This document shows positions 6,927 through 46,185 of a stretch of DNA of 64,000 nucleotides, piece after piece. Under the pieces are notes generated by a model. It was not told where the DNA came from, did no database searches, and saw only the letters and a list, made by a program, of their open reading frames with translations. The position numbers and the translations under genes are program-made. The first letter of the stretch is position 1; every line of letters starts with the position of its first letter. Origin of the DNA: a virus (lineage: Duplodnaviria > Heunggongvirae > Uroviricota > Caudoviricetes); the IMG/VR virus record IMGVR_UViG_3300042430_003153; one strand, given 5' to 3'.

Positions 6927-8057
6927 TTAATAAATTTTAATATGTGGATTCTGAAGTATCTTAGTTTTGAAGTCATTAAAAGATATAGCAGATTGTATTC
7001 TAAGTTGTCCTTTAGAATCTCTTTTGAATCTAAGTTTCACTGTACTACTTTCTGCTAACTTTCTATATTTAATTCTAAATTGAAGCCAAGCTTCTTCTTG
7101 TTCATCACTTCTTTCTCCTTTTAGTCTATGTGAACTTAGTTCTTTATACATTTGTTCAAACTCTGAAGTCTTACTCCATATATCTGGAAGATAAGATTCC
7201 CAAACTTTAACAGGCATCAATACTAGATATTCTTCAACAATATTCTTTTTATCAATACCATCGTGAAAACCAACTGCTAAAATAAAATATTCAGCAGTTG
7301 TTTCTCTAATTTTTAATCTATCACCTACCATCTCCAAACCAGCAATTCTTTTGAAATCACCCATTTCAACATCGGTTCCTATTTTCATACATTTGATACT
7401 CCAGTTTCTTGATTCTGAAAAAGAATCCGGGTAGTAATCAAATTTAACATCTCCTTCTTTTGGTGACCAGATTACCTCATCAACACCAGAAACAGGATCT
7501 TTTTCTAATAAACTATGATATTGAGACTTATCCCAAAGCTCTATTTTTTTACCACTATCTGCTCTCCAAGTTAGATAAGTCTTATCCATTCCACCTTCAG
7601 CATCCCACTTATGTGTTTTCCCAAATCTTTGAAGTCCATTATATCTTCTTACATCACCTTCATAAATAAATCCGTGTAATTGTCTTGCTCTATTAGCCTC
7701 ATTTGAATTTTTCTTGAAGATATAAAGAAATACTTCTTGTCCGTCGCTAGTGACAATTTTTGAATCTTCTGGCATATAACCCTGATGTTTTTTAATATCA
7801 GAGTCAAAGAAATTAACGTTTTTAATTCTTAACGCAGATTTTGGTAGATTTAAAAACTTTTCTCTTTCTAACGGTGTCTTTTTATCACTCACTAAAACAC
7901 AGTGAGCATATTCATCAAAGTCATACATTCTCATCCACTTTTTAATTTGAGATTTTTTATAAATTCTTCTTTCAATTAAATCGTAAACTTTAAATGTAGT
8001 GTGATAAATATACAATTTTGCTTCGTTAATGAATTGACTATATGATTTAATATTCAT
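6927..8057 (-). CDS. hypothetical protein with CTS-like N-terminus; C-terminal domain paralogous to 43848..44386
   Basis: N-terminus MNIKSYSQFINEA. Last ~110 aa align with ORF 43848..44386 (GDFKR, VGF, IVxEY, LRFKRDxKxQxRIQ). Confidence 0.55.
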   Translation of the reverse strand: MNIKSYSQFINEAKLYIYHTTFKVYDLIERRIYKKSQIKKWMRMYDFDEYAHCVLVSDKKTPLEREKFLNLPKSALRIKNVNFFDSDIKKHQGYMPEDSKIVTSDGQEVFLYIFKKNSNEANRARQLHGFIYEGDVRRYNGLQRFGKTHKWDAEGGMDKTYLTWRADSGKKIELWDKSQYHSLLEKDPVSGVDEVIWSPKEGDVKFDYYPDSFSESRNWSIKCMKIGTDVEMGDFKRIAGLEMVGDRLKIRETTAEYFILAVGFHDGIDKKNIVEEYLVLMPVKVWESYLPDIWSKTSEFEQMYKELSSHRLKGERSDEQEEAWLQFRIKYRKLAESSTVKLRFKRDSKGQLRIQSAISFNDFKTKILQNPHIKIY

Positions 8058-8079
8058 AAAACTATATATTAAATATGTT

Positions 8080-8610
8080 TTATAGAATATTATTTATTTG
8101 AATTTCACGCCATAAAGTTCTAAATTCCTCTCTTATTTCTTCTGAATAATCCCAAGTATCTTTTTTACTCCAGTAGTCATACCATTTTTTACCAACTTCT
8201 TTTTGAACTATTTTGAAGTTTAAGAGTAAAGTTTCAAAGTCACTAAACTCTTTAGTAAAATTTACTAAATTTTCGATAAAATCAAAATCAATCTTTTTAA
8301 TTGATTTATAAAATTTAGAATCAGCATAACATCTAAAACAATGTAAGGGAATTTTGTTGATATTAAATTCCTCACCTGGATTTGAAAACTCAGGGTGTGT
8401 AAAATAAAATTTTAAATTAGAGTTTTCTAAATGATGTATTAAGTCTACAACTTGTCTTTGTATTCTCAAATCAAGAAACACCCAAACAATTCCATCCTTA
8501 AAATAGCAGAGTGGAACATTATGTAATTTTTTGAAAAAAACATAATCTTTACCAACACTCCATTCACGGTTATGTCTTTGTTTTTTTGGTATTAATTTAT
8601 ATAAGTCCAT
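8080..8610 (-). CDS. hypothetical protein
   Basis: 176 aa ORF, no recognisable motif. Confidence 0.5.
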   Translation of the reverse strand: MDLYKLIPKKQRHNREWSVGKDYVFFKKLHNVPLCYFKDGIVWVFLDLRIQRQVVDLIHHLENSNLKFYFTHPEFSNPGEEFNINKIPLHCFRCYADSKFYKSIKKIDFDFIENLVNFTKEFSDFETLLLNFKIVQKEVGKKWYDYWSKKDTWDYSEEIREEFRTLWREIQINNIL

Positions 8611-8914
8611 TTTCTTTTAGAATAATTCTAAATACCTTTTTTTGATATTCTCTGGTTTCGTTGGTGTGATCTCTCCAGTAATTATAATTTTTATTTGGTG
8701 AGAATTTAACTTTATTTTTTGTATCGTGCTTTTCAGTGGTTAAAGTTTTTGCTATAAAATATTCTTTAGTTCCTAAGAAATCTATCATAGTGGATTCACC
8801 ACAATAAGACTTATTAACATTCTGAAAAGCCCACCAATTTGAATGCATATGTCTACTGAGTCGTTTTTTGACGACTATTTCATGTTTGAATCTTCTCCAG
8901 GCACGACCTCTCAT
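8597..8914 (-). CDS. hypothetical basic protein
   Basis: 105 aa, overlaps neighbours by a few codons. Confidence 0.45.
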   Translation of the reverse strand: MRGRAWRRFKHEIVVKKRLSRHMHSNWWAFQNVNKSYCGESTMIDFLGTKEYFIAKTLTTEKHDTKNKVKFSPNKNYNYWRDHTNETREYQKKVFRIILKENGLI

Positions 8915-8931
8915 AACCGCAAATATACAAA

Positions 8932-9174
8932 TTATTTTAGAATTTCTGAAATCTTTTCCTCTCTATCTAATTGAAATGTGTCAATTTCAAACATCGGTAA
9001 TCCATCAATTCTTGAAGGACTTAAGTATTTACCATATACTGATTTTCCTTCATATTTATCAGAATTAAATACCATGCCAAACACTACACTATCAATAACT
9101 TTTAACTCTGAAAAATCTAATTGAATTATCTGGTCTTTATGTTCTAACTTTTCTGATTTTATTGTAAATTTCAT
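8932..9174 (-). CDS. hypothetical protein
   Basis: 80 aa. Stop overlaps the start of the topoisomerase gene. Confidence 0.45.
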   Translation of the reverse strand: MKFTIKSEKLEHKDQIIQLDFSELKVIDSVVFGMVFNSDKYEGKSVYGKYLSPSRIDGLPMFEIDTFQLDREEKISEILK

Positions 9175-11015
9175 TTTAACAACTCTGTTTTTCTTAAATC
9201 AGAACTCTTACCAAACCAAATATCCAATGAACCTTTGGACATATCATCTTTAGTGATTAAAGTCATTCTTGGTGAATTGATTATATCTTTGTATTCATCA
9301 TCAACAAGAGCTGCTAAACCTTTTTTATATTTAACTTCCCATTGTTTTAAATCATTCTTAGATTCCCACTCTGACCACTCTGACTGTGAATAAAAGAGAA
9401 CTTTTTTCTTACCTTTTTGTTTTGGGATAGCAACAACAATTGGTGTTTCTACTTTATAAATCATTTTTCTTTCAAACATATCAGGCCAGTATTTGTAAAA
9501 AAAGTTAATCAATAAACCGGCAATTGAGTTACCATCGACATCAGCATCTACATAAAAAAGAACACGACCGTATCTTAAACTTTTAAGTTCAATCTCTTGT
9601 CCAAGTTTTAAACCAATTGACGCCATTAAATTTACTACCTCATCATTTGCAACCAATTTTTGATTAGTCATTTCTGATACATTTACAAATTTTCCTTTAA
9701 GTGCGAAAGCACCCATTGTTTCTGGAGTTCTATATTTTCTGAATGCTGAAATAGCAGAGTCACCTTCGAATAATCCAATTGAACATTTCCATCGGTCTTT
9801 ACCTTTAGCGTCAATTAGCTTTTCAACTTTAATCTTAGAAAGTTTTTTATTTAACTCTCTTTGTAGTTTTGAGTCTTCAGCTGACTTTTTTTGTTGAATC
9901 CAATCTAAAATAGAATTAACAATCTCAGATTTTAATATACTTTGAATAAGTTTATTTGATATTTCAAAAGTTGTTCCGAAATCTTTAATCTCTGTAATTA
10001 ATTTCTCTTTGGTTTGTGATGAGAAGGATGGATTAATTATGGTGGAGTCTAAAAATAAAAACATATGATTCTTTAATTCAGATGGCTTAACATCAACCTT
10101 ATGTTTCTTCATAAAGAACTCTCTTAATTGAGAAACGATTTGATTCATAATATAATCAACGTGTGTTCCACCATCATAAGTTTCTGTAGAGTTAGCAAAA
10201 CTAACTTGTTGAAATCCATTCTCGGAAAGTGAAATACTAACTGACCAAGATTTATCTTTTGAAGTTTCATAAAAATAATCTTTGACATAAAGTTTAACAT
10301 AGTCTTCAAATGTTCCGAAATTCAAAAGTTTATTATTGAAATGTATTTTAAGATGTGTGTTACAAGCAGCCAGGTCATAAACTCTTTTTTCAATCATTTT
10401 GAAATGATTTTGGTCAATATCGCTCAATCCAAACTTTTCAAAGTCTATTAGAAACGAAATTTCTGTATGATTTTTTGATGATTTTGTAATCTTTGGTTGA
10501 GTTCTTTCTCTCATATTATTTGAGAAGCTCTGAACAAATTGTTTTTTACCATCACAAGTTGAAATAGTAAATCTTGTTGAATAGATATTGGTCAATGTAG
10601 AACCAACACCATTAGTTCCTGCCCAACTTCTTGCTTCACTATCATCAAAGTTTGAACCTGCTTTAAGATTAGAAAATATCATTTCTGGAATCCATTCTTT
10701 GTGCTCTGAGTGTTGAACTACTGGAATTCCACCATTATCCCAAATGGTTATAGTATTTTTTTCTCTATCAATAGTTACTTTGATTGTGTTTAACTTTGAA
10801 CCTTTTCTCTTAGATTCATCAACTGAGTTAGTAATGATTTCGTCGAATATTTTTAGAAAACCTGGATTATATGTGGTTTCTTTTAATTCTACAGTATCTT
10901 CATTGATTAACCATTTATTAGATGTATGTGGTTTTATTGAACCGATATACATACCCGGTCTCAATATTACATGCTCAATATCATCTAACTTCTGGAACTT
11001 CTTATCTACGGACAT
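9171..11015 (-). CDS. type II DNA topoisomerase large subunit (GyrB-like ATPase + TOPRIM; T4 gp39+gp60 equivalent)
   Basis: EHVILRPGMYIGS and IFDEIITNSVDE GHKL-ATPase motifs, with a TOPRIM EGDSA motif. Single continuous 614-aa ORF. Confidence 0.9.
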   Translation of the reverse strand: MSVDKKFQKLDDIEHVILRPGMYIGSIKPHTSNKWLINEDTVELKETTYNPGFLKIFDEIITNSVDESKRKGSKLNTIKVTIDREKNTITIWDNGGIPVVQHSEHKEWIPEMIFSNLKAGSNFDDSEARSWAGTNGVGSTLTNIYSTRFTISTCDGKKQFVQSFSNNMRERTQPKITKSSKNHTEISFLIDFEKFGLSDIDQNHFKMIEKRVYDLAACNTHLKIHFNNKLLNFGTFEDYVKLYVKDYFYETSKDKSWSVSISLSENGFQQVSFANSTETYDGGTHVDYIMNQIVSQLREFFMKKHKVDVKPSELKNHMFLFLDSTIINPSFSSQTKEKLITEIKDFGTTFEISNKLIQSILKSEIVNSILDWIQQKKSAEDSKLQRELNKKLSKIKVEKLIDAKGKDRWKCSIGLFEGDSAISAFRKYRTPETMGAFALKGKFVNVSEMTNQKLVANDEVVNLMASIGLKLGQEIELKSLRYGRVLFYVDADVDGNSIAGLLINFFYKYWPDMFERKMIYKVETPIVVAIPKQKGKKKVLFYSQSEWSEWESKNDLKQWEVKYKKGLAALVDDEYKDIINSPRMTLITKDDMSKGSLDIWFGKSSDLRKTELLK

Positions 11016-11063
11016 TGAAATTTACAATTTTTTTAGATGTATATAGTAAAAAGTAAAATTTGT

Positions 11064-11756
11064 TTATTCTGGTATATCTGTGAATCTACTATCTGGCTTG
11101 AGTGGAATAAGTGGATTTACTTCAAATTTTTTATTTATGTAATCTTTTAGTTCATTCTCAATATAGTTTTCAGGAACTTCTTTATCTGGATCCTCTAAAC
11201 TCATTTTAAGAGAAAGTGAGTTTGAAAAACTCTGTATAACTTCAGGTCTAATTGCACTAACTAATTTATCAGATACTACAAAAGCTCTTGTGAATCTATC
11301 TTTAACCGGAATCTCACCTTCAGCTACTTTCATAGACCTGTCAATTAATTGTTTAAGAAAACCTTCATAAGTATCAGATGAGTCCTGTAGTATAGGAGCT
11401 AATATTTTATTAAAAGCTCTTGTAGAGCCAAGTATCATACCTAAAATAGCTGCTATAGGAAAAAACGGAGCTAAAGCCATTGGTATAACTCTATGAAGCG
11501 CTTTTACAATTCCAACTTTTAAGTCAGTTCTTTTCTTTGCAGTTTGAGCATCTTTAAAAAGAGCTAATAACATTCCGAATCTCATTTCGGTTCCTTGTGA
11601 TTTTAAGTAATCAGCCAAATGACCTCTATGTGCATTGTAAAGTTGACGATTGATTTCTTCTTCGTCAGTGATTCCCAATCTTTGTAATTCTGCTTTAAAA
11701 TTATCATCAAACTTCTCTAAAATTAGGAATTGACTATATCTCTTTAATTTACTCAT
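11064..11756 (-). CDS. hypothetical membrane-associated protein with CTS-like N-terminus
   Basis: N-terminus MSKLKRYSQFLILEKF. Internal hydrophobic stretch VIPMALAPFFPIAAILGMILG. Confidence 0.5.
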   Translation of the reverse strand: MSKLKRYSQFLILEKFDDNFKAELQRLGITDEEEINRQLYNAHRGHLADYLKSQGTEMRFGMLLALFKDAQTAKKRTDLKVGIVKALHRVIPMALAPFFPIAAILGMILGSTRAFNKILAPILQDSSDTYEGFLKQLIDRSMKVAEGEIPVKDRFTRAFVVSDKLVSAIRPEVIQSFSNSLSLKMSLEDPDKEVPENYIENELKDYINKKFEVNPLIPLKPDSRFTDIPE

Positions 11757-14017: not shown

Positions 14018-14734
14018 ATGTCTAATAAAAAAGTTTTATCTTACGAAGAGTTTGTAAACGAAGAAATCAATCTTAAAAAAGCTTTAGCTGGAGCCGCTTT
14101 AGGTGCTGGTCTTATGTTTGGTAATCCAACTGATGCAAAAGCACAACAACCAGTTCAAACTGAAATATCACAAACATCAAATGCTGATTACTCAGAAGTT
14201 TTCGAAGTAGATAGTCTTCTTAAGAAATCAGATATTAAAACTAAGATTACCAGTCAAATTTATAATAGTCTTTCTGGAATTAGAATCCTTACAAATACTA
14301 CTGATAAAATAACTTGTTCTGTTACAATGAATGCTAAACCTGATAACTCAAATGGTGTTTGTTATGCAACTATGGATGTCTCATTTAAAGATGGTAAGTA
14401 TAAAGTTGAATTTTCAAATATTTACTTTGTTCATGTAGGAACTCAACCACAAACAGCTGGTCAACAGCTAGGACAGAATTTGAATAGACAATTAACAGGA
14501 GTGGCAACTAATGCGTTAACTGGAACTATCAGAAATCCTATATTAAGAAACATGACTCAACAAGCTGTAAATACTACAGTTAGAAATGTTCAAAATTCTA
14601 ACCAGACTAATTCTAATATTAATTACAAAAACTCGAATAATCAATCATTCGTAAATTCTGTTAATGCTGAAATAAGTAAAATTACAACCACTTTTCAATC
14701 AGCTTTCTCGACCAATACAGATAATGATTGGTGA
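14018..14734 (+). CDS. hypothetical protein with CTS-like N-terminus, hydrophobic segment and N/Q/T-rich tail
   Basis: N-terminus MSNKKVLSYEEFVNEE, then ALAGAALGAGLMFG, then a low-complexity N/Q/T-rich C-terminus. Confidence 0.5.
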   Translation: MSNKKVLSYEEFVNEEINLKKALAGAALGAGLMFGNPTDAKAQQPVQTEISQTSNADYSEVFEVDSLLKKSDIKTKITSQIYNSLSGIRILTNTTDKITCSVTMNAKPDNSNGVCYATMDVSFKDGKYKVEFSNIYFVHVGTQPQTAGQQLGQNLNRQLTGVATNALTGTIRNPILRNMTQQAVNTTVRNVQNSNQTNSNINYKNSNNQSFVNSVNAEISKITTTFQSAFSTNTDNDW

Positions 14735-32249: not shown

Positions 32250-33944
32250 ATGAAATTGTTCAAATATGACGAATTTATCACTGAGTCTCAGTTACACTTC
32301 TTATTGGAAGCTAATGTGAATTTTACAAAAGAATTTATATCTATTTTGGGTAGAGTTGATTCTCCTATTTCTAAAAAACTTATTGATATTGAAGGTAGAG
32401 AGATTGATATAAATCAAAATTATATTGGTATAAATAAAGAAAAAACAGACACGATTTTCTTTAAACCAGATGATAAAGTTGGTAAAGTTGCTAAAGTAGT
32501 TAGTCAAAATGGAATTTATCCACAAATCACATATCAACTTAGTAAAATTGAAGGCAGTGGAGTTGATAAGTATGAAGAGTCTGACTTTGTAAATCCTGAA
32601 AACGATACAGTTGGTCAAGTTGTAAAAGAATATTCTTTAGAAGAAATAAGTAATTTTCTTCCTGACTATAGATCAAACTTACAGTATATGTTTATTACTG
32701 AAAATCCACTTGTTCTTTTTCAATGGATTAAAGATAGGAAAAAATATCAAATTTTAATCAATAAAAATTCCATCAACACTGGACCAGAAGCTGTTCGTAG
32801 TTCAGAGATAGCTGTTGGTAGATTTGTTAGAGCTATACTTACAAAGGCTGGTCATAAATTCACAGATGCTGAAATTGAACAATTTGTTTACAAGTATAGA
32901 GCTGAAGTAGAAAAAGAAAAGAATGTATTAGATTTAAGATTTAAAGTTGTTGAAGGAAGTGATATTAAAAAATACTATCATAAAAGTATGTATGAGAGTG
33001 AATCTGGAAGTTTAGGAAGTTCGTGTATGCGTTATGATAGATGTCAGAGCTATTTAAGTATTTATACAGATAATAGTCAATGTAAACTTTTATTATTAAT
33101 GTCAGAAACAGAACCTGATAAAATTTGTGGAAGAGCTATACTTTGGGAGATGGAACCTTATGAACTATCTACAAAAGTTATGGAAAGAATTTATAGTACT
33201 AGAACCGCAGATGAACAGTTGTTCAAAGAGTGGGCTATTAAAAATGGATACTGGTTTAAATCAAAACAAGACTTTAGTGAATATACTGAATTTGAATTTC
33301 ATAAAGAAGATGGAACTGTTGAGAAAAGACAGGGTGAGTTCTCTGTCAAATTAGACAATAAAGGTGAATATTCATATTATCCTTATATGGATTCATTTAA
33401 GTATTATGATCCATATAAAGGTGTTCTTTATAACTCATCAAACTTTGATTATGAATATGAACTAACTGATACAGAAGGTGGAAATGGTTCTTGTTCTGAG
33501 TGTGGTGGTAGTGGTAGAGTTGAGTGTGGTGATTGTGATGGTGATGGAACCAAAGAATGTTACGAATGTGATGGAAATGGTTCTGTTAGTTGTGAAGACT
33601 GTGATGGAGGGGGTAAAGAAGACTGTAATGTCTGTGATGGTGAAGGTGAAATTGAATGTTCAACCTGTGATGGAAATGGTCAAGATGATTGTGATGATTG
33701 TGGTGGTGATGGTGAAATCGATGGTGAGGAATGTGAAAGTTGTTCAGGAAGTGGAAAACAAGATTGTTCAGATTGTTCTGGTGAAGGTAAAAAAGAATGC
33801 TACAAATGTGATGGTGATGGAAACTACGAATGTAAAAACTGTGACGGTGAAGGTAGTTTAGAATGTGATGATTGTGATGGATCAGGTGAAAAAGAGTGTT
33901 ACAATTGTGATGGTAATGGTAGACACAGTTGTCCAGAATGTTAA
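32250..33944 (+). CDS. CTS-bearing protein with C-terminal array of 13 DnaJ-type CxxCxGxG zinc-knuckle repeats
   Basis: N-terminus MKLFKYDEFITES. Last ~155 aa are CxxCxGxGxxE repeats with 11-aa period, ending CPEC. Confidence 0.6.
   Translation: MKLFKYDEFITESQLHFLLEANVNFTKEFISILGRVDSPISKKLIDIEGREIDINQNYIGINKEKTDTIFFKPDDKVGKVAKVVSQNGIYPQITYQLSKIEGSGVDKYEESDFVNPENDTVGQVVKEYSLEEISNFLPDYRSNLQYMFITENPLVLFQWIKDRKKYQILINKNSINTGPEAVRSSEIAVGRFVRAILTKAGHKFTDAEIEQFVYKYRAEVEKEKNVLDLRFKVVEGSDIKKYYHKSMYESESGSLGSSCMRYDRCQSYLSIYTDNSQCKLLLLMSETEPDKICGRAILWEMEPYELSTKVMERIYSTRTADEQLFKEWAIKNGYWFKSKQDFSEYTEFEFHKEDGTVEKRQGEFSVKLDNKGEYSYYPYMDSFKYYDPYKGVLYNSSNFDYEYELTDTEGGNGSCSECGGSGRVECGDCDGDGTKECYECDGNGSVSCEDCDGGGKEDCNVCDGEGEIECSTCDGNGQDDCDDCGGDGEIDGEECESCSGSGKQDCSDCSGEGKKECYKCDGDGNYECKNCDGEGSLECDDCDGSGEKECYNCDGNGRHSCPEC
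33478..33944 (+). repeat. degenerate 33-bp tandem repeat (coding for CxxCxGxG units)
   Basis: tgtgatggtgatgg-type units recur every 33 nt. They also create a spurious alternate-frame ORF (33478..33861). Confidence 0.7.
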
Positions 33945-33946
33945 TT

Positions 33947-34471
33947 TCAATTCTTATAAAATGCTAAAACTAATTTTTGAGCTTTAAATATATTAGGATC
34001 TTTGGATCCTAGTTTAGCCGTATTGAGTGGAATGTTTTCTTTTATCTTATCAAGGTCTTCAAAGTACATATAACTCCAGTGATAATTAACATAGATATAA
34101 TTTGGAATTAAATCATAATTATCAAATAAATAATCTTTTAACATTTCATAAGCTTCTGATGTTTCGTCTATATTATATGTATGTAGTTCTGACGTATTAA
34201 ATTCTATTGTTAATGAATTACCAGTTCTTGATTTAGTGTATTTATCAATATCACCAGAGTTTAAACATTTTGAGCCACCTGTTTTATCATCATTGAACAA
34301 ATTCCAATCAATTACAACAGAGGATCCAACTTTGATGTCATAATCTAAACCCATTTGTTCAAAGTCAATTAATATATGTTCTAATTCTACTAAATCAATT
34401 TCAGATTCTAACAAACTCTTCTTGACACCGCGTAAGTTTTCAAATACTCTAAAATTTTTAATAAACTTCAT
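33947..34471 (-). CDS. hypothetical protein with CTS-like N-terminus
   Basis: N-terminus MKFIKNFRVFENLRG. 174 aa. Confidence 0.5.
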   Translation of the reverse strand: MKFIKNFRVFENLRGVKKSLLESEIDLVELEHILIDFEQMGLDYDIKVGSSVVIDWNLFNDDKTGGSKCLNSGDIDKYTKSRTGNSLTIEFNTSELHTYNIDETSEAYEMLKDYLFDNYDLIPNYIYVNYHWSYMYFEDLDKIKENIPLNTAKLGSKDPNIFKAQKLVLAFYKN

Positions 34472-35083: not shown

Positions 35084-35573
35084 TGTTTTAGAAATGGATA
35101 TGAGTATTGAATACAAGCTCGCGTGGAATGTAGCCGCTCGATCTTGTTATCAAATATTCTATAGTCTTCCAGACTGTATGTTACTTTATAGACACCAGAT
35201 ATCAGAACCATATGTCTGGACTAAATTTGGTTGTAATCATCCTGATAAAATAAAATTAGAAAAACTTGATGGTAGAAATCTAATGTTATTTCATGTTGAT
35301 GTTTATAAAGAAGATACTAATAAATTTAAAGACCTAATTGATTACTGTCAATCTAATAACATTGATATGTGGATACCTTTTCCTCTAAAAAATCTTTGGA
35401 GAAATGAAGAACCACATCTCCAAATAATGAAAGATATATTGGGTGGTTATCAATGCAACACTTATGATTTAACTGGTATGAATTACAGAAGTGAAAATGA
35501 AATAAATGGTTTAATAATAGAAAAAACGAAACCTATATTCAGAGATATTAAATTGAGAAATTTATTTGATTAG
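35076..35573 (+). CDS. hypothetical protein
   Basis: 165 aa ORF. Confidence 0.45.
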   Translation: MINVLEMDMSIEYKLAWNVAARSCYQIFYSLPDCMLLYRHQISEPYVWTKFGCNHPDKIKLEKLDGRNLMLFHVDVYKEDTNKFKDLIDYCQSNNIDMWIPFPLKNLWRNEEPHLQIMKDILGGYQCNTYDLTGMNYRSENEINGLIIEKTKPIFRDIKLRNLFD

Positions 35574-35824
35574 TATTCTATTTTCTCAACATCATCCAAA
35601 TCAACATAGTATTCTCCACCATCAATTTCAACGGTAATTAAACCATCTTCATCTATATCAATCGGTGTGATTGGATCTTTAGGATCATTATCGGGATATT
35701 CTTTTACAATAGTTGAATAGATAACACCTCTTTCTTTAATACAGTTGATAATATCATCAATTGTAATTAGAGTTCCTTCTTCGTTATTTTGCTTGAAATC
35801 TTCAAATAATTTTATCCATTTCAT
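35570..35824 (-). CDS. hypothetical acidic protein with CTS-like N-terminus
   Basis: N-terminus MKWIKLFEDFKQNNEE. D/E-rich 84 aa. Confidence 0.45.
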   Translation of the reverse strand: MKWIKLFEDFKQNNEEGTLITIDDIINCIKERGVIYSTIVKEYPDNDPKDPITPIDIDEDGLITVEIDGGEYYVDLDDVEKIEY

Positions 35825-35857: not shown

Positions 35858-36748
35858 ATGAAATATATCAAAAAATTCAACGAAGAGTTATATCCTAAGA
35901 CTTATAGAAGTGCTGGTAGTAAATTAGATTATTATAATAAGTCAAAAAATGCAGCAAAACTATTTGATTTTGCTGATGAAAAGGAGTTTGGTTTTTATAA
36001 TATGAATTGGGCAAATAATAATCCAAGCATTACAATAAAAGATTCATCTTTTACTGAACCTAGATTGACTGGTATTTATTATGCTTCAACTCCAACAAAA
36101 TACAAAGATGAATTTAAAGGTTTTAATGGAATGTCATATGGAAAAGATGCAGAAACGTTAGCAGAAGATTTAGTTGAAAGGTGGAAATTGGGTCAGGATG
36201 GACTTAATATAAGTTTTGAGTTTTCATTTAAGGCTACAAGAGAAACTGTTGAAAAAAGTGGTAGAAGCACAAATTTTTGTTGGAATGCTAATAATCCTAC
36301 TGCTAAAGAAGTAAAAGCCTTTAACTTACAAATAGACTTAAGTGAATGGTATAATGGAATTGATGATTGGGATGCTGATGCTAGATGGGATGCTGAATAC
36401 GATGGTGTAGAATTTACTCCAACTACTTTGATAGAATTTTATAATTGGTCTGCATGTTATAATGTGATGATAAAAAACCCTAATGATAGTCAATATGGTA
36501 TTTTCAGTGATAGAAAGTCAGCAATTAAATTTAAAAACTGGTTATTAACTAATCACTTAGATGATATCAAAGATGCTATTATGAATGTTTTAAGAGTTGT
36601 TGGTGGTACATCTGAAAATATTGAAAAAGCGGTTGATGCTTTTACAAAAATGAAAATTCAAGGTCTTTATGATGATGATTTACCAACTCGTGGTGGATCT
36701 GGTGATTGGATTCGTAGTAGATGGTATGAAAAAGATATAAGTATATGA
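35858..36748 (+). CDS. paralog family member 1 (CTS-like N-terminus, conserved C-terminal FxxRxxAxKFKNxL motif)
   Basis: MKYIKKFNEELYPKTYRSAGSKL ... FSDRKSAIKFKNWLL. Confidence 0.6.
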   Translation: MKYIKKFNEELYPKTYRSAGSKLDYYNKSKNAAKLFDFADEKEFGFYNMNWANNNPSITIKDSSFTEPRLTGIYYASTPTKYKDEFKGFNGMSYGKDAETLAEDLVERWKLGQDGLNISFEFSFKATRETVEKSGRSTNFCWNANNPTAKEVKAFNLQIDLSEWYNGIDDWDADARWDAEYDGVEFTPTTLIEFYNWSACYNVMIKNPNDSQYGIFSDRKSAIKFKNWLLTNHLDDIKDAIMNVLRVVGGTSENIEKAVDAFTKMKIQGLYDDDLPTRGGSGDWIRSRWYEKDISI

Positions 36749-37470
36749 AATATTTAAAGAGATTTAACGAAGAATTAAGACCACAGACTTATATGTCTGC
36801 TGCTAGAAAACTTGACAAATTAGGTCATCATGATAGAGCAAATGCCCTAAAAGACTGGGCTAAAGAAACTGAGAAAAAAGAAGAAATGATTAAGTGGCAA
36901 GACCACATTCAAGATTATGCTCAGTTTGGAACATTTAAGATGACTATAAAAAATCCAGAAACTAACGAGACTTTGACAGGTGACTTTCACTTAGATGTTA
37001 ACTTTGATGATTTGGCATTTGGTGATGAACCAGAAAGTGGTATTACTTTTTTTATAGGTTTAATTCCAACATCTGAAGATTTAATCTATCAGTATATGGA
37101 ACTTTGTCCAGATTATGATTTTGGAAACGGTTTCTTCTGGGGCAAGATATTTACTTTAGGATATGAATTAGAAGATACGGTTAAATTTACTAAATGGAAT
37201 ATGTGGGACTATGATGATGAAATGAACGGTAAAGTCAATTTTGCTGATAGAGCATCTGCTAATAAGTTTAAGAATTTACTTATTCAAATATTTAGTAACC
37301 CGCAATTAGGTTACCCATCTGGACACACGGATGCTGATGACTTATATGAAAAATTAACAAATTGTATCCTAGCTGAGAATTCATTTTCTTCTGATTATGG
37401 ATTTAGATTAGAGGATGCTGCTGAATACATAAGAACAATATCACCAAATTTACTTTCTTCTACACTATGA
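36745..37470 (+). CDS. paralog family member 2
   Basis: MKYLKRFNEELRPQTYMSAARKLDKLGH ... FADRASANKFKNLLI. Start overlaps the upstream stop. Confidence 0.6.
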   Translation: MKYLKRFNEELRPQTYMSAARKLDKLGHHDRANALKDWAKETEKKEEMIKWQDHIQDYAQFGTFKMTIKNPETNETLTGDFHLDVNFDDLAFGDEPESGITFFIGLIPTSEDLIYQYMELCPDYDFGNGFFWGKIFTLGYELEDTVKFTKWNMWDYDDEMNGKVNFADRASANKFKNLLIQIFSNPQLGYPSGHTDADDLYEKLTNCILAENSFSSDYGFRLEDAAEYIRTISPNLLSSTL

Positions 37471-38327
37471 GATATTTAAAAAGATTTAATGAAGAGTTAA
37501 AAGCATCTACTTACAAAAAAGCAGGTGAAAAATTTACTCAGATGGGTCACAAAAGAAGAGGTGCTGAATTATTAGATTATGCAACTCAAGTTGAATTAAG
37601 AGAAAAATCTGATAAACTTTTACAAGCTCAAAATGTAAATAAAGAGTTTGGTTTATTTGATATTACAGTGGCAAGAGGTTATGGGTCAAATAAGAAAGAT
37701 ATATTTTCTGGTCAATTTTATCTACAGATGTGTTTAGAATCTGATTGGTTTAAAGACCAGTTACATGATTGGTTAGGTGAAGGTATGACTTGGTCAATGG
37801 GAATTGCTATGGAATTTGCCATTATACCAGCTGATGATGAGACACTTAAAATGTTTGAAACAAGCGAAGATTCCGATATTATATATTTTAGAAATAACTC
37901 TATGTGGAGTGATGACTATAGATACTGGACTAATAGATTATGGCTTAATCTTTTTGGTAAAGGTGGGGTTCCTTCTTATACATGTGGATCTGGTGGATTT
38001 GAAGATAGAGATGGATTTACGTTTCACTTTAATTCTAGATCAGAGGCTATGAAATTTAAAAACTTGTTATCTAATACATTAGAAGGAAAATCAAATTGGG
38101 GTGCTTGGAATGAAAGAACAATTGCTGACCAATTAAAATCAACGCTTAGTTTAGATGAAGAGTTGTGGAGAAAAAAACTGATGGATCATTACTTAAATGG
38201 TAGAGAAGATGAATATGATTTAACAGATCCAGATACCTGGCCAAAAAATCCTTTTGGAGAAGATACCTATAAAGGTGCTGTTGATGCTGCTAAGAGAATG
38301 TCAGTAAATGGTTTATATAGAGATTAA
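37467..38327 (+). CDS. paralog family member 3
   Basis: MRYLKRFNEELKASTYKKAGEKFTQMGH ... FNSRSEAMKFKNLLS. Start overlaps the upstream stop. Confidence 0.6.
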   Translation: MRYLKRFNEELKASTYKKAGEKFTQMGHKRRGAELLDYATQVELREKSDKLLQAQNVNKEFGLFDITVARGYGSNKKDIFSGQFYLQMCLESDWFKDQLHDWLGEGMTWSMGIAMEFAIIPADDETLKMFETSEDSDIIYFRNNSMWSDDYRYWTNRLWLNLFGKGGVPSYTCGSGGFEDRDGFTFHFNSRSEAMKFKNLLSNTLEGKSNWGAWNERTIADQLKSTLSLDEELWRKKLMDHYLNGREDEYDLTDPDTWPKNPFGEDTYKGAVDAAKRMSVNGLYRD

Positions 38328-38330
38328 AAG

Positions 38331-39596
38331 ATGAAGTATTTAAAAAGATATGAAGAAGCTGTCGGTGTTAGATTGAAATCAGAATTGAAATCAACTGTCG
38401 AAGACTTGCTTATTGAATTAAGAGATGAAGAGTTCGATACAAAAGTGTCTGAAATAGATTATCATTCACAAAAAGAAAGAGTTAAAGTTTCTGTGAGTAG
38501 GAATAAAGAATTCACATATAGTGATATAAAAATACCAATTGAATCTATTTGGTCTTATTTAAGTGGAGAAGGATTTGAAATAGAACACTTTACTTGTGTA
38601 GAAGATGAAAACTTTGAAGAATCAGAAGATGGATTCACAATTAACCAGAAAATTAAAGGTTATCATTGGACAACAGATCCTGAAACATTTGGTGTTAAGT
38701 CTATTGAAAAAGAATACCAAAGAAGACCTCAAATTGCAAAATCAGAAGTATATAATCCGATTAATTTTGATAGAATTAATAGCTGGTTATTTGAGATTTC
38801 ATTCACTAAGGATAAAATTGAGATAGATAGAAGTAGAGGTCTTTCAACAAATGAAGATCTTGACCCAAGAACATACATAAGTGCGGCTGATAAATTAAAA
38901 AGTTTAGGTCATATTAAAAGACCTGAACAACTAAGAGCTTGGGCAGAGGTTGTTAGACAAAGAGAAAGAGATGCTAAACATAAGATGACGCTTGAACAAG
39001 CAAAAAAATTAGGTCAATTTCAACTAAGATTTGTTAAGGGAAGTGAAATAAGATTTGTAAATTGTTATATACAATTGTATTTTAATTCTGACTATTACCT
39101 AAGTGAGATGTTACCAGAATGGTTAGATGATGAGAGAAATAGTCTTTGGCCACAGTTTATGTTTGGAGTTCATCCAGTAAGTGAAGAAGATTTAGAAGTT
39201 TTAGATTGGTATGTCGGTGGTGATATTAAAGGTTATACAAACTCAGATGGTATAATTTGGTTACAAGATGTTTATATCAATCTGACAAATCAAAGATGCA
39301 AAGATCACCATGGTGTAAAATTACCTATGGTGTCTACAGGAGCTGTATCAATTGAATGTTCTGAATTTTCTGAAGTTTATTTTTCAAACAGAAGAGAAGC
39401 TATTAAGTTTAGAAATTTATTAGTTGGTCTTTTTGAAGGAGATATAGATTACATACAACCGAATGGTAAAGACTTTAAAGAAGATATAATCGAAACTTGG
39501 TGTGAACATGAAGAAAGACCAGTTGAATTGTCAGAGTTGGAAGATTTTATTGATAAACTTAGAGTGGTGAGATTAAATTCATTATATAGAGATTAA
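38331..39596 (+). CDS. paralog family member 4 (extra N-terminal domain plus internal copy of the family N-module)
   Basis: MKYLKRYEE at the N-terminus. Internal NEDLDPRTYISAADKLKSLGH. C-terminal FSNRREAIKFRNLLV. Confidence 0.6.
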   Translation: MKYLKRYEEAVGVRLKSELKSTVEDLLIELRDEEFDTKVSEIDYHSQKERVKVSVSRNKEFTYSDIKIPIESIWSYLSGEGFEIEHFTCVEDENFEESEDGFTINQKIKGYHWTTDPETFGVKSIEKEYQRRPQIAKSEVYNPINFDRINSWLFEISFTKDKIEIDRSRGLSTNEDLDPRTYISAADKLKSLGHIKRPEQLRAWAEVVRQRERDAKHKMTLEQAKKLGQFQLRFVKGSEIRFVNCYIQLYFNSDYYLSEMLPEWLDDERNSLWPQFMFGVHPVSEEDLEVLDWYVGGDIKGYTNSDGIIWLQDVYINLTNQRCKDHHGVKLPMVSTGAVSIECSEFSEVYFSNRREAIKFRNLLVGLFEGDIDYIQPNGKDFKEDIIETWCEHEERPVELSELEDFIDKLRVVRLNSLYRD

Positions 39597-39612: not shown

Positions 39613-40785
39613 ATGAAAATTAAAAAATATCAACAGTTTTTAGAATCACAAAGTTCAGATATGTGGAATATAATTCCACAATCGGTTAAAGAATTGCAAT
39701 TACTTTTCAAATCAAAAGGAAAAAAATTGTATGTCGTCGGAGGTGCCGTTAGAGACTTCCTCACTGGAGATAAACCAAAAGACTTTGACTTAGCAACTGA
39801 TGCTCTCCCAGATGAGGTATTAGAAATCATCGGAAAAGATTATAAGACTAACTTACAGGGTAAAGCATTTGGAGTTGTAGTTGTATTCACCGATGATCAA
39901 CCAGAGGGAATGGAAATTGCTACATTCAGAGAAGATGTTAGTAAAGGAAGAAACCCTGAAGTTAAATTAGGAGTTACTATTGAAGATGATGTTAAAAGAA
40001 GAGATTTGACTTATAACGCACTTTTCTATGACTTAGATAATAAAGAGATTGTTGATTTGACTGGAGGTCGTGAGCATTTGAAAAATGGTATAACTCAAAT
40101 GGTTGGTGATCCAACTGAAAGATTTGATGAAGATTCTTTAAGAATTCTTAGAGCTTTCAGATTTGCTTCTCGTTATGGACACCCTCTTCATAAAGATACT
40201 GAAGTGGCAATTGAAAAAAGAAAACAATTAGAAAATATAGAACCTGAAACCGGTGAAATGAAAAGAATTTCTCAAGAAAGAGTTTGGGAAGAAATGAAAA
40301 AAGCTTGGAAACAAGCAAGAGATTATAGAAACTATCTTAACTTCTTTACTAAGTTTGATATGTGGTCTGAAGTTTTTCCTGGTTCTGAAATCAACACTGA
40401 CTTAGTTGATTCGAAAGACTTTGTAGTTGTTATTTCTAACTTATTTAAATTGGAAAATCCAGATGGATTAGAAAAAAGATTAGTTCAAGATTATAAAATC
40501 GAATCAGAAGTAGCAACTAAAATTGTTTTCTTATTAAGATTATTAAAACTAACTCCAGAACTTGCTTTCGATATGTATAAATCAAAACTTCAATGTCATA
40601 TTGAAGATAAAACTATTTTAGAATGGTTTAGAGTGTTGGGTATAAATGATCCTATTAAGATAAAATTTGTTGAATATAAACCAACTACATCAGCTCAGGA
40701 CTTAATGGCTAATGGATTCAAAGGAAAACAATTAGGTGATGAAATCAAAAGAATTGAAATTGAAAATTTCAAAAGTATGTTATAA
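39613..40785 (+). CDS. cca: tRNA nucleotidyltransferase (CCA-adding enzyme) head domain with CTS-like N-terminal extension
   Basis: YVVGGAVRDFLTGDKPKDFDLAT and RRDLTYNALFYD (PolyA_pol head motifs). Preceded by a ~30-aa extension MKIKKYQQFLESQ. Confidence 0.8.
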   Translation: MKIKKYQQFLESQSSDMWNIIPQSVKELQLLFKSKGKKLYVVGGAVRDFLTGDKPKDFDLATDALPDEVLEIIGKDYKTNLQGKAFGVVVVFTDDQPEGMEIATFREDVSKGRNPEVKLGVTIEDDVKRRDLTYNALFYDLDNKEIVDLTGGREHLKNGITQMVGDPTERFDEDSLRILRAFRFASRYGHPLHKDTEVAIEKRKQLENIEPETGEMKRISQERVWEEMKKAWKQARDYRNYLNFFTKFDMWSEVFPGSEINTDLVDSKDFVVVISNLFKLENPDGLEKRLVQDYKIESEVATKIVFLLRLLKLTPELAFDMYKSKLQCHIEDKTILEWFRVLGINDPIKIKFVEYKPTTSAQDLMANGFKGKQLGDEIKRIEIENFKSML

Positions 40786-41284: not shown

Positions 41285-41334
41285 ACTTTTTAACTAAATA
41301 TAAATATTAAAATCTATATTAAAAAAATAATTTT

Positions 41335-41610: not shown

Positions 41611-41616
41611 AAAAAA

Positions 41617-41645
41617 GAGTTAGACTAAATCTAACTCTTTTTTCT
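41617..41645. terminator. bidirectional terminator hairpin
   Basis: AGAGTTAGACTAAATCTAACTCT flanked by an A-run and a T-run, between convergent genes. Confidence 0.55.
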
Positions 41646-42521: not shown

Positions 42522-42579
42522 AGTTTTATATATTTAAATTTTTTATTAACTTTGTTTATTAGAACTATACTTTCAGAAA

Positions 42580-43845: not shown

Positions 43846-43847
43846 AA

Positions 43848-44386
43848 TGGCAGAAAGACAAGAACATGCTTTTGAATATGAAAGTAGAATTATTTTAGAA
43901 AATAATATTATTAAATCAGAAGGATATACCGATAAGTGGGATGCTTTTGAAAATGACATTCCTGTATCGGTAAAAAATATTAAACTAAATTCTGGTGTTG
44001 ATTTTGGTGACTTTAAAAGACAAACTCTTTTAAGCCAAGACTTTTATCTTTATGTTGGATTTTGGCAAACTGATAAAACTAATATTGTTAAAGAATATAA
44101 GATTTTAGTTAGTTTTGAAAACTGGAAGAAATACTTTGGTGATATTACAATTATTCAAGATATGATTGGTGAAATGAAGCAAATATCAAATGACCGTAGT
44201 GATGATGGTAAATGGAAAGAGTTTAGAAAAAAATGGAATCTACTTTACAAAAAGTTTAATAGTAATCCTGTAATCACACTTAGATTTAAAAGAGACCACA
44301 AAAAACAAAAACGAATTCAATGTGGTATATCATCAAGCAACTTTAAGAAACTAATTGATGAAAATCAAATTATTTGGCAGAGATAA
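43848..44386 (+). CDS. hypothetical protein paralogous to the C-terminal domain of ORF 6927..8057 (possible PD-(D/E)xK-like)
   Basis: Start at ATG 43848 avoids overlap with uvrC-like. Shares GDFKR, VGF, IVKEY and LRFKRDxKxQxRIQ with ORF 6927..8057. Confidence 0.5.
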
Positions 44387-44404
44387 TTAATATATATCCT
44401 TAAT

Positions 44405-45670
44405 ATGGATATTATTACTAAATTTTCTAAATTCTTAAATGAATTAAATGAAGCCAGAACAGTAGACTTACCAATTTTAGATGTTGTAATCGATGATGAT
44501 GGTTTAATCTATAATGGAGAACAAGCTGATTTAGTTAAAGGTAGAGTTCAAAGAGAACCTGGAAGAATCGTTACTAGAATTTTAGGAACTGATAATAAAG
44601 AATATCCTGCAGGAATTGACAAAAATGGAAATGTAGTTGCTTTACAAAAAGACACAGAAAACAGAGCACTTAACTCAGCTGGTCAACCAATACCGGTTCC
44701 ACAATTTATACAAAAGAAATATAAAATTGGTCACCAATTCTATTACGAAGATCCAGAGTTTGATTATTACTCTGTGATTCCAATTACACCAACTGGGTGG
44801 ATTAACGTAAAGATTGATATGGAAATTGTGAAAAGAGTTAAAAGATATGCTAAAACTCTTGGAACAAATAACAGAGGACACGAATCTTTTATTTCTAAGT
44901 TAATGGAATTTGAAAAACTATCAACTCAAAGTCGTTCACCACAATATATTTCAAGACTTAAAAGAAGCACTATTCAAAAAGAAATGTCTGCAATTCTTTT
45001 ACTTCACCATATAAATGAAATTAAAGACTTCTTTAATCCATCACAGGGTGGTTTTTTATTTGAATCATTTGTTGCTGGTTTGATTCCAGACGCAAGAGTA
45101 AAAGAAGATAACTCACCAGTTGATATAAAATCAGCAAGTGGTAGATATCAATTAAAATTAGTCGATTTTAAAACAGAATATATTGAAGTAACAAAAGATA
45201 ATGACCCAACCAAATCACCTTGGTTAGAACATTATATGATGGCTTTAAAATATGTCGATAGAATAGATATGTATATTGTTGATGGTAGAATTTTAGAAGA
45301 TAGATACAATAATGATACACTTGAAAATTTAATAACAAAAGGTGGTGCTAAATCTGGACCGAAATTTGCGGTAAAAAGATTAATAGCACTTAATGATCCT
45401 ACTTTAGTTAGAAAGTTCACAATCGAACTAACCGATATTGATGGTAGAATCAAAAACTTAGGTGATAGTCTAAAACAAAGTTTGAAAGAGTTATATGATG
45501 AGTTAAGTAGATTTCAATATAATGTTGAAACAATCATTACTGGAGTTAACGAAAAAGGAAAAGTTGTCAGAGACCAATACGAATTTGATGTTTATCATTT
45601 ATCAGCTGAAAAGAATATCATAAATTTATCACATCACCTAAAAAGGCTAGTATCAGATATAAACAAATAA
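44405..45670 (+). CDS. hypothetical protein with CTS-like N-terminus
   Basis: N-terminus MDIITKFSKFLNELNEA. 421 aa. Confidence 0.5.
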   Translation: MDIITKFSKFLNELNEARTVDLPILDVVIDDDGLIYNGEQADLVKGRVQREPGRIVTRILGTDNKEYPAGIDKNGNVVALQKDTENRALNSAGQPIPVPQFIQKKYKIGHQFYYEDPEFDYYSVIPITPTGWINVKIDMEIVKRVKRYAKTLGTNNRGHESFISKLMEFEKLSTQSRSPQYISRLKRSTIQKEMSAILLLHHINEIKDFFNPSQGGFLFESFVAGLIPDARVKEDNSPVDIKSASGRYQLKLVDFKTEYIEVTKDNDPTKSPWLEHYMMALKYVDRIDMYIVDGRILEDRYNNDTLENLITKGGAKSGPKFAVKRLIALNDPTLVRKFTIELTDIDGRIKNLGDSLKQSLKELYDELSRFQYNVETIITGVNEKGKVVRDQYEFDVYHLSAEKNIINLSHHLKRLVSDINK

Positions 45671-45672
45671 TC

Positions 45673-46185
45673 TTACCAATTATTAGAATAAGTATCAGTG
45701 TCTTCTTTAAAAAGAGATACTAAAGACCAAGCAATAATTGATACTATCGCTCCTATTATAAATAACAAACCACTACTTACTGCTAATCCTAAAAATGCAG
45801 CTACTGGTGCTCCAAAGCAAGCGATTAGTGTAATTGAAGCTCCTGAAATACGAGCTATTTTTTGTAACATTGTTTCAGTTTCTTCATCTTCAACTGATTC
45901 ATTAACAATAGGTTGAATTTGTAATGGATTTCCAACAAATGATTTAACCCAATTCCAAAGTTTCATTAATTCAGATTGATTTTGTTGTTTAAGTTTCTGT
46001 GTAGTTTCTTCCATTAATTCAGGATTTTCTTTAACCCAGTTCATTCCATATTCAGCTCCTTCTTTAACTTCACCTGTTAATTTAGAAATCCAACCTGATA
46101 ATTTTTCTTTAATCCAATTAAAAGCTTGTAAAAACCAATTTTCATTAACAACATTGAATTTTTCATAAGTCTTAATATATCTCAT
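45673..46185 (-). CDS. membrane protein with CTS-like N-terminus and C-terminal TM helices
   Basis: N-terminus MRYIKTYEKFNVVNEN. C-terminal hydrophobic helices (ASITLIACFGAPVAAFLGLAVSSGLLFIIGAIVSIIAW). Confidence 0.5.
   Translation of the reverse strand: MRYIKTYEKFNVVNENWFLQAFNWIKEKLSGWISKLTGEVKEGAEYGMNWVKENPELMEETTQKLKQQNQSELMKLWNWVKSFVGNPLQIQPIVNESVEDEETETMLQKIARISGASITLIACFGAPVAAFLGLAVSSGLLFIIGAIVSIIAWSLVSLFKEDTDTYSNNW

Follow-up and report, generated by a model that had tools for sequence, protein, structure and literature searches.

An N-terminal peptide resembling the T4 capsid targeting sequence on numerous proteins of a Mahaphage-type megaphage

Tagged genes of the window and frequency of the motif

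The DNA analysed here (the window) is a 64,000-nucleotide stretch from the IMG/VR virus record IMGVR_UViG_3300042430_003153, classified in the Caudoviricetes, and the subject of this study is a short peptide, hereafter the tag, which recurs at the N-termini of proteins encoded in it. A preliminary description had listed 13 open reading frames (ORFs) beginning with such a near-identical basic-aromatic-acidic peptide and had likened the peptide to the capsid targeting sequence (CTS) of phage T4. All 13 ORFs are present where they had been placed, with starts as described; four of them (35858, 36745, 37467 and 38331) are, however, tandem paralogs and hence non-independent cases. A 14th tagged gene, overlooked at that stage, was found at 53248-53895 (+), with a score of 15.3 in the position-specific scoring matrix (PSSM) described below. 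The tagged genes are as follows, with lengths in amino acids (aa) and distances in nucleotides (nt):

6927..8057, minus strand: tagged protein of 376 aa, starting MNIKSYSQFINE then AKL, with a predicted PD-(D/E)XK restriction-endonuclease-like fold; adjoins a type II DNA methyltransferase (MTase) gene at 6101-6898
11064..11756, minus strand: tagged ORFan of 230 aa, starting MSKLKRYSQFLILE then K, with one hydrophobic segment (aa 87-112); lies between two topoisomerase II (topo II) genes
14018..14734, plus strand: tagged ORFan of 238 aa, starting MSNKKVLSYEEFVNE then E and a Gly/Ala-rich hydrophobic stretch; PSSM score 16.0; ATATATA box 4 nt before the ATG; weak phrog_4002 match
32250..33944, plus strand: tagged protein of 564 aa, starting MKLFKYDEFITE then S, with a C-terminal Cys-rich zinc-ribbon region (BSD2_CRD, 8.9e-6); member of a multi-copy megaphage family
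33947..34471, minus strand: tagged ORFan of 174 aa, starting MKFIKNFRVFE then N; PSSM score 12.7; box 4 nt before the ATG
35570..35824, minus strand: tagged small acidic ORFan of 84 aa, starting MKWIKLFE then DFKQ; the LR745206 ortholog 513049 (67% identity) is also tagged
35858-36748, 36745-37470, 37467-38327 and 38331-39596, plus strand: four tandem tagged paralogs, with starts of the form MK/RY[IL]K[KR][FY][NE]E[EA]; PSSM scores 19.5-23.2
39613..40785, plus strand: tagged CCA-adding enzyme (tRNA nucleotidyltransferase) of 390 aa, starting MKIKKYQQFLE then S, with the linker QSSD and an ancestral-looking start MWNIIP
44405..45670, plus strand: tagged ORFan of 421 aa with a divergent tag, starting MDIITKFSKFLNE, then LNE, then A
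45673..46185, minus strand: tagged ORFan of 170 aa, starting MRYIKTYEKFNVVNE then N, with a C-terminal hydrophobic region (aa 113-161); PSSM score 19.1
53248..53895, plus strand: tagged protein of 215 aa, starting MRLKTFNDFPHI, with an HD / cyclic-nucleotide phosphodiesterase domain (Pfam PDEase_I 5.5e-6, 26.7 bits against a cut-off of 24.8; HD 4.4e-3)

The window has a GC content of approximately 29%. Its topo II region shares 73-76% nucleotide identity with the uncultured huge phages LR745206.1 (635 kb) and LR756502.1 (642 kb), and positions 2-53 kb of the window are syntenic in gene order with 485-522 kb of LR745206. On the basis of this nucleotide match and synteny, the window is assigned to a Mahaphage-type megaphage. 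The group of LR745206.1 and LR756502.1 comprises the largest phage genomes known (PMC9723777). Shine-Dalgarno sequences are absent upstream of the window genes, TAnnTTTG boxes of the Bacteroidetes type are found upstream of several of them, and the host is probably a member of the Bacteroidetes.

The frequency of the motif was assessed in the window gene set (97 N-termini) together with LR745206.1, which was taken in full (909 ORFs called). A strict regular expression ([KR].{0,2}[FY]..F within the first 16 aa) matched 12 of the 97 window N-termini, compared to 1.5% of internal 16-aa windows and 0.6% of internal windows beginning with M. A PSSM of 13 columns, trained on N-termini, was run on 969 N-termini (window and LR745206.1) and 4845 internal windows; scores above the cut-off of 12 were obtained for 107 of the former (11%) and only two of the latter (0.04%). 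When a second regular expression was added for the shorter tag form MIKKYxQFIxE, the tag was recognised on 127 of the 909 LR745206 proteins (14%) and on 14 of the 97 window proteins, the tagged genes being spread across the entire 635-kb LR745206 genome. Tags were likewise present among the sampled genes of relatives (8/65 in LR756502, 5/55 in LR756501, 5/126 or about 4% in LR756504, and 3/108 or about 3% in LR756500). A 15th window candidate, 27416 (+), was rejected for its weak PSSM score and its untagged LR745206 ortholog.

The PSSM consensus reads M-K-[YH]-[LI]-K-[KRTS]-[YF]-[NEK]-[EQL]-F-[EVLI]-[ES], or in short form M-K-[YH]-[LI]-K-x-[YF]-x-x-F-[ILVE]-x-E, with MKYLKKYKIFES, MIKKYNQFINEE and MNIKSYSQFINEA as examples of the peptide. 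Two sub-classes can be distinguished, MKYLKxYxxFE and MIKKYxQFIxE, and the tag spans 11-16 aa before a linker or domain begins. The consensus proposed earlier, MKxxKx[F/Y]x[E/Q]F, is loose, as 44405 (MDIITKFSKFLNE) and 14018 (MSNKKVLSYEEFVNE) match solely from the aromatic pair on. The tag is strictly restricted to the extreme N-terminus. An AT-rich genome of 29% GC, in which the codons of the motif are themselves AT-rich, could in principle generate such a pattern by chance or composition. This explanation is refuted by the N-terminal enrichment tests, where the excess over internal windows of the same proteins was more than 250-fold and even M-initiated internal windows matched at the low rate given above; moreover, the motif is kept across divergent orthologs.

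Correspondence with the T4 sequence, boundary and modularity of the tag

In T4 (NC_000866), IPII and IPIII start with MKTYQEFIAE followed by A, the form to which the tags had originally been compared, but the comparison does not extend unchanged to IPI, which starts with MKTFKEFTST...ITE followed by A. Mutagenesis of the T4 CTS has assigned targeting to residues 4 and 7 (Y4, F7) and processing to residues 8 and 10 (I8, E10) (PMC9026906), and T4 gp21 favours I/L-x-E, with weaker cutting at x-x-E (PMC12991175). The residue-level statistics given here rest on 119 PSSM-selected tags, and those on the acidic end and on [ILVMF]-x-E on the 127 tags of LR745206. Position 0 was Y or F in 119/119 tags, a figure partly built in by the selection, and position +3 was F or Y in 73/119. 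This aromatic pair at 0/+3 (i/i+3) is the best-conserved part of the tag, followed by [ILV] at +4 with E at +6, or by [ILV]-F-E. The conserved aromatics thus correspond to residues 4 and 7 of the T4 CTS, and [ILV]-x-E to its residues 8 and 10. The full pattern arom-x-[EQDN]-arom-[ILV]-x-E was found at 21 N-termini, against 0.96 expected. A Glu at most 9 aa past the first aromatic was present in 123/127 tags compared to 46% of controls, and [ILVMF]-x-E in 91/127 (72%) compared to 20%. Among the 13 ORFs first listed, several of which had been said to continue with I/L/V-x-E, eight do so after the aromatic pair, four have F-x-E and one has neither.

At the level of sequence, the strongest single evidence for reading the tag as a T4-type CTS is the boundary seen in the family of the 6927 protein. 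Across 87 homologs (30-96% identity), the tag Glu is at least 90% conserved, on par with core residues, and in 44 of the 53 parsed members [ILV]-x-E ends exactly 3 aa ahead of the first β-strand (E-x-K-L, with the strand beginning at [FY]-I-[YF]). Insertions of 3-21 residues occur after the tag Glu or double the aromatic part, and [IV]-N-E stays beside the domain. Eight untagged orthologs start MK(K)LYI(Y/H), at most one residue from the predicted cleavage product, within the same synteny (topo II, x, gene, MTase, RNase H, NusG). Their genomes are relatives with 23% GC, L022 and L023 among them, in which tags are present on other genes. Because these untagged orthologs sit in genomes that are tagged elsewhere, the tag is gained and lost protein by protein at a fixed boundary. 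In the AlphaFold2 model of the 6927 protein, the confidence score (pLDDT) is 50 at residues 1-10, and a short helix (residues 6-10) precedes the strand at residues 14-23; a profile search of the PDB with the family gave no match. The predicted PD-(D/E)XK endonuclease-like fold (6927-8057) lies beside the DNA methyltransferase gene (6101-6898), and 6101-8057 (-) looks like a phage-borne restriction-modification pair in which the nuclease alone would bear the tag.

A similar boundary can be traced in the CCA-adding enzyme, where the Pfam domain begins at residue 39. In 120 metagenomic homologs (77-100% identity), MK[IL]K[KR]Y.QFLES is invariant, followed by 3-5 residues variable in sequence and length and then by the conserved MW(D/N)IIP. 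As judged from these alignments, the tag is an add-on placed ahead of the ancestral start of known enzymes. Its modularity is further illustrated by the 106 PSSM-tagged LR745206 proteins, which after removal of their first 25 aa fell into 102 BLAST-unrelated groups. Homologs of the CCA-adding enzyme and of the 6927 protein were found on many metagenomic contigs.

Codon use within the motif was compared with genome-wide use, and the values were close for AAA (Lys, 0.73 vs 0.75), TAT (Tyr, 0.79 vs 0.85), TTT (Phe, 0.76 vs 0.71) and GAA (Glu, 0.76 vs 0.73). Since synonymous codon use inside the motif equals that of the genome, selection acts on the peptide and not on the nucleotides, and a nucleotide-level signal, either for leaderless translation or as a recombination cassette, was rejected on these grounds. 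This bears on the possibility that the motif is an inherited N-terminal module or recombination cassette with no targeting role, spread via duplication or shuffling. Such an origin would fit with the tagged genes being mainly accessory ORFans, with local paralog arrays (35858-39596), and with the sharing of the topo II slot by unrelated tagged genes across genomes, comparable to the hyperplastic IP locus of T-even phages. We nevertheless find it very improbable, as nucleotide conservation does not exceed what the amino acids impose, which argues against a recombination substrate, and as the tag has been added to enzymes of cellular ancestry (CCA-adding enzyme, Rnl1, 2H, NUDIX). In addition, the tag remains constant in families down to 30% identity and over the 120 CCA variants while the adjacent linkers drift, which points to purifying selection on function.

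The topo II slot itself, between the genes for two topo II subunits, is occupied by genes that differ between genomes (window 11064-11756 (-); LR745206 491501-492349; L022 6994-7581; L023 6998-7594). A clear tag is present in three of the four genes, the L023 gene (MIEKYIEFVGN) having fallen below the tag criteria, and BLAST finds no similarity between the genes of the window and LR745206. Such replacement in the manner of a cassette is reminiscent of the IP locus in T-even phages. The window gene in the slot has a tagged homolog in LR756502 and no Pfam or PHROG match, and the gene at the same position in LR745206 is unrelated and tagged.

Upstream box, head genes of relatives and other genes

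A (T)TAATATATA box, referred to as the ATATATA box, was observed 4-6 nt upstream of the ATG of 6927(-), 11064(-), 14018(+), 16295(+), 19788(+), 21353(-), 32250(+), 33947(-), 35570(-), 35858(+), 40817(+), 41631(-), 50075(+) and 57234(+). It precedes 8 of the 14 tagged and 7 of the 83 untagged genes of the window. In LR745206 the distance from box to ATG is 4 nt for 62 genes and 5 nt for 32, and the box is linked to the tag, being found at 38/106 tagged and 75/803 untagged genes (odds ratio 5.4, p 1e-11). It is also found ahead of a gp25-like baseplate wedge gene and a tail-fibre-like gene, and a T4-like late promoter yielding near-leaderless mRNAs is a plausible interpretation. Since a phmmer search with T4 gp55 gave no match, and LR_189151 was a candidate on a pairwise E value of 2e-4 alone, we do no more than infer a promoter of the gp55 type.

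TAnnTTTG boxes of the Bacteroidetes -7 type were noted in the upstream regions at 8597-8914, 19133, 19532, 23127, 30725 and 34517. The genes behind them differ from the set behind the ATATATA box, which suggests at least two promoter classes in the phage, one of host type and one of phage type.

The association between box and tag raises the question of whether the motif could be an element of expression or stability, either aiding the translation of (near-)leaderless mRNAs or acting as a degron or anti-degron. The genes lack Shine-Dalgarno sequences, many tagged genes carry the box 4-5 nt before the ATG, implying leaderless-like transcripts, and Lys-rich starts generally favour initiation. 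However, the synonymous sites within the motif are unconstrained, and an RNA-level signal is therefore unlikely. Moreover, 68 of the 106 tagged genes have no box, including the operon-internal 36745, 37467 and 38331, and boxes without a tag are common, for instance at genes for signal-peptide proteins and at the baseplate wedge gene. Neither the aromatic pair nor the placement of [ILV]-x-E has a rationale in translation initiation, and orthologs manage without the tag. Taken together, an expression or stability element seems quite unlikely.

Homologs of T4 gp20 (4.8e-23), gp17 (3.7e-50), gp18 and gp19 are encoded by LR745206, as is a Gp23-family major capsid protein (MCP; Pfam 1.8e-26). Directly upstream of the MCP gene lies a gene for a 707-aa protein (198546-200669), the first ~140 residues of which align with T4 gp21 over the H85 and S140 motifs (BLASTP 3e-4; catalytic residues of gp21 from PMC12991175). 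Both MCP and protease were located through synteny, Pfam and pairwise BLAST; phmmer searches of LR745206 with T4 gp21, gp22, gp23 (partial), gp67, gp68 and the IPs gave no match. Some 13 tandem repeats of 14 residues each, N-I-x-Y-S-E-Y-[ILV]-A-E-x-L-D-K, make up the middle of the 707-aa protein; a very acidic stretch comes next, and then a C-terminal domain that is conserved. This fusion of putative protease and scaffold, together with the repeats, is kept in four lineages (LR745206, LR756504, LR756501 and LR756500), and we know of no description of such an architecture. The core of the repeat, YSEYIAE, is similar both to YQEFIAE, its counterpart in the T4 CTS, and to the megaphage tags in their C-terminal half. 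The N-terminal region of the MCP contains the conserved sequence WMSEYAE[FYM]H.[IM][NH]E-N, a plausible maturation site. In the window, a 50-aa ORF at 3356-3508 (-) (MSKIILEGVLQTFGKHNNGRIYPE...; also LR745206 605387-605551) resembles by eye the first strand and NRNxRIY motif of a prohead protease; it was rejected as the N-terminus of such a protease on a BLASTP E value of 0.15.

Regarding the functions of the tagged proteins, the preliminary description had named a CCA-adding enzyme and membrane proteins. The former was confirmed at 39613 (Pfam PolyA_pol 1.9e-30; PHROG tRNA nucleotidyltransferase 2e-58), and hydrophobic segments were indeed found in 11064 (aa 87-112) and 45673 (aa 113-161). 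For most tagged ORFans of the window, Pfam, PHROGs and PADLOC gave no function, and library searches with the 35858-39596 paralogs gave no family match; all four of these match LR_514145, the true start of which is an internal MKYLKRFNEEL. The LR745206 homologs of 32250 (90898 and 475547) are still tagged at 32% identity, and that of 44405 (378849, MNIKKFENFSE) aligns over aa 130-420 alone, yet is tagged at its own N-terminus. Among the tagged LR745206 proteins are an Rnl1-type RNA ligase, a 2H-phosphoesterase (Acb1-like) fused to a DEDD exonuclease, an ankyrin protein, a nucleotide cyclase, a NUDIX hydrolase, a GH108 muramidase, a DHH phosphoesterase and a Toprim-like protein. Tagged proteins range from ~60 to ~660 aa; they should not be classed as IP homologs, as their likeness to T4 is limited to the tag. 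Core genes of the window, including the replication-related topo II subunits and RNase H/FEN-type nuclease as well as the MTase and dCMP deaminase, are untagged.

Several further observations were made on the window and its relatives. Genes for tRNA-Leu(TAA) (56939-57023, +) and tRNA-Arg(TCT) (57059-57133, +) are present in the genome that encodes the tagged CCA-adding enzyme. The regions 50856-56887 and 60889-62968 are crowded with small ORFs whose N-termini resemble signal peptides, lipoproteins or transmembrane segments (e.g. MKTKLLILLSLILFSCK), and which have no tag and no homologs in LR745206. The dCMP/cytidine deaminase at 2743-3366 (-) (Pfam 9.7e-23) has an N-terminal extension of ~80 aa, missing in its 125-aa LR745206 ortholog, and is given a TTG start in the ORF list. 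Two tandem 96-aa paralogs, 49348-49638 (-) and 49655-49945 (-), start MDEVFIGELAQFPYNF... and MYEPFVGEICQYPYNF..., N-termini which presumably resemble phage tail-collar or MDP-type domains. The ORF at 47833-48792 (+), 37% identical to LR745206 87064-88059, starts MAKYRILSLDGGGLRG, which we take to be a patatin-like GGGxRG motif. A patatin-like phospholipase has been described for Mar_Mega_1 and LR745206 (PMC9723777). In L023 (3934-6953, -), the topo II medium-subunit gene is broken into parts of 166 and 416 aa by a 404-aa ORF, which may be a mobile insertion (homing endonuclease or intein-like element).

Interpretation and comparison with known systems

Based on the N-terminal enrichment, the modularity, the selection on the peptide, the residue correspondence, the acidic end, the boundary in the 6927 family, the head genes of relatives, the link to the box and the untagged core replication genes described above, we regard it as probable, with some reserve, that the peptide is an N-terminal capsid-targeting propeptide of the T4 type, massively expanded in the Mahaphage-type megaphage clade. 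In the proposed mechanism, the 10-16-residue amphipathic tag, with a basic start, hydrophobics at -3, 0 and +3/+4 and an acidic end, would dock the new protein on the prohead scaffolding core, i.e. the gp21-like protease fused to ~13 repeats N-I-x-Y-S-E-Y-[ILV]-A-E. Once the gp23-type shell has closed, the protease would cut after Glu, preferably at [ILV]-x-E, so that the tag is removed and the scaffold chopped, and the mature proteins would stay in the head and exit with the DNA upon infection. Scaffold binding, cleavage, virion presence and ejection of the tagged proteins are steps that we infer. That a tag resembling the phage's own scaffold repeat loads more than 100 different proteins (~14% of the proteome) into the virion as a pre-made 'injectome' is put forward tentatively, as a possibility to be taken seriously.

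A number of observations weigh against these proposals. The phage and every tagged relative are uncultured. In Tenacibaculum phage PTm1, whose MCP is the nearest among cultured phages (29% identity), the first 52 genes are all untagged; with this result and an annotation without proteomics labels, PTm1 was dropped as a cultured proxy. The ~127 tagged proteins per genome, as opposed to three in T4, would be an unprecedented number. Under half of the tags (51/119, 43%) contain the canonical [ILV]-x-E, though the background is 16-20%, and the four paralogs and the CCA-adding enzyme have F-x-E in its place. The head genes lie outside the 64-kb window and were seen in relatives only, and the assignment of the protease is a weak one, with Pfam Peptidase_S77 at E 0.005 and thus short of the cut-off. 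When a PSSM was made from the scaffold repeats alone (YSEY[ILV]AE), it gave no meaningful N-terminal enrichment (1.4-2.7-fold, tiny counts), and the likeness between tag and scaffold therefore holds at the pattern level only. Since the ATATATA box also stands ahead of genes for a helicase and the topo II medium subunit, it is no firm sign of late timing. Finally, the tagged proteins are acidic (median isoelectric point, pI, 4.9 vs 5.8, with 79% below pI 6), contrary to the basic IPs of T4, and some of them contain membrane-spanning segments.

The last two points would also fit the main rival explanation, in which the peptide would serve for sorting or docking at another destination, by binding a phage or host partner common to the tagged proteins, such as a chaperone, a replication or assembly compartment, or the membrane. 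A modular, peptide-selected N-terminal tag on unrelated proteins is compatible with any sorting signal, the tag forms an amphipathic helix, and many tagged proteins are ordinary cytoplasmic enzymes that would work unpackaged. Such a destination leaves unexplained, however, why the tag matches the T4 CTS residue for residue, including the processing residues, why [ILV]-x-E is enriched and placed 3 residues ahead of the mature domain, why untagged orthologs start at that boundary, and why the tag coexists with a T4-type head module whose scaffold has a Y-x-E-Y-[IL]-x-E pattern. As a membrane anchor the tag is too short and too charged, and to our knowledge no other N-terminal sorting system has this consensus. 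A destination other than the capsid is thus considered unlikely.

If capsid targeting is the correct interpretation, approximately 14% of the proteome would be cargo, comprising a restriction-endonuclease-like protein, enzymes of tRNA and RNA repair (CCA-adding enzyme, Rnl1-type ligase, 2H phosphoesterase-exonuclease), a GH108 muramidase and nucleotide-signal enzymes (HD/PDEase, DHH, NUDIX, cyclase). Enzymes for counter-defence, RNA repair and attack on host DNA would then be delivered ahead of phage gene expression, which would help to explain what purpose capsids and genomes of such size serve. From sequence alone, the proteins carried by uncultured megaphages could be catalogued, and this payload would exceed that of any studied phage in diversity by an order of magnitude. 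The T4 CTS mechanism, documented so far in T-even phages of enterobacteria, would extend to a distant Bacteroidetes-associated lineage, implying that it is ancient within the gp20/gp21/gp23 head module, and the natural tag variants and pairs of tagged and untagged orthologs would be usable for engineering protein delivery by phage capsids. Should the tag lead elsewhere than to the capsid, one N-terminal address label shared by ~14% of a viral proteome would still constitute a new phage protein-sorting system. A full-text literature search returned no megaphage or huge-phage paper containing the phrase 'capsid targeting' and none linking megaphages to a capsid targeting sequence.

The closest known counterpart is the CTS of T4, a 10-19-aa N-terminal propeptide that is likewise found on unrelated, fast-evolving proteins and for which the consensus M-K-x-[YF]-x-E-F-I-x-E can be set against M-(x)K-x-[YF]-x-x-F-[ILV]-x-E in the megaphage. 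In both systems genes for cargo, in the megaphage candidate cargo, are swapped at fixed genomic slots. The T4 CTS occurs alongside a gp23 shell, gp20 portal, gp21 protease and proteolysed scaffold, and relatives of the megaphage have genes for gp23 and gp20 homologs and for a weakly gp21-like putative protease fused to a scaffold with [ILV]-A-E sites. The megaphage differs in that its tags have 2-3 extra residues ahead of the aromatic pair, and in that its tagged proteins reach ~660 aa, include many enzymes and are acidic, whereas the T4 IPs are small (8-20 kDa), basic and DNA-associated. Furthermore, its putative protease and scaffold form a single polypeptide with 14-aa repeats, and its host is probably a member of the Bacteroidetes.

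The phiKZ-like giant phages (phiKZ, 201phi2-1, SPN3US) are likewise giant myoviruses with tens of packaged proteins, whose N-terminal propeptides are cut after Glu by a protease related to T4 gp21. Their propeptides are long and dissimilar and are not known to share an N-terminal consensus tag, and cleavage occurs at S/A/G-x-E. The megaphage tag, in contrast, is short and near-identical, so that candidate cargo can be read from sequence. For SPN3US, the number of head proteins is reported as ~50 and the mass of ejection proteins as more than 40 MDa (PMC7411985). The cargo-loading peptides of encapsulins are also short, terminal, modular and transferable, and suffice to load diverse enzymes into an HK97-fold shell. 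They are usually C-terminal, bind the shell interior directly and are not known to be cleaved or to involve a scaffold, protease or DNA. In the Dar system of phage P1, incorporation follows an ordered protein-protein dependency and is not known to use a common N-terminal tag. The P1 Dar proteins are reported to be anti-defence proteins carried in a myovirus head and injected (PMC9024508, PMC12810830).

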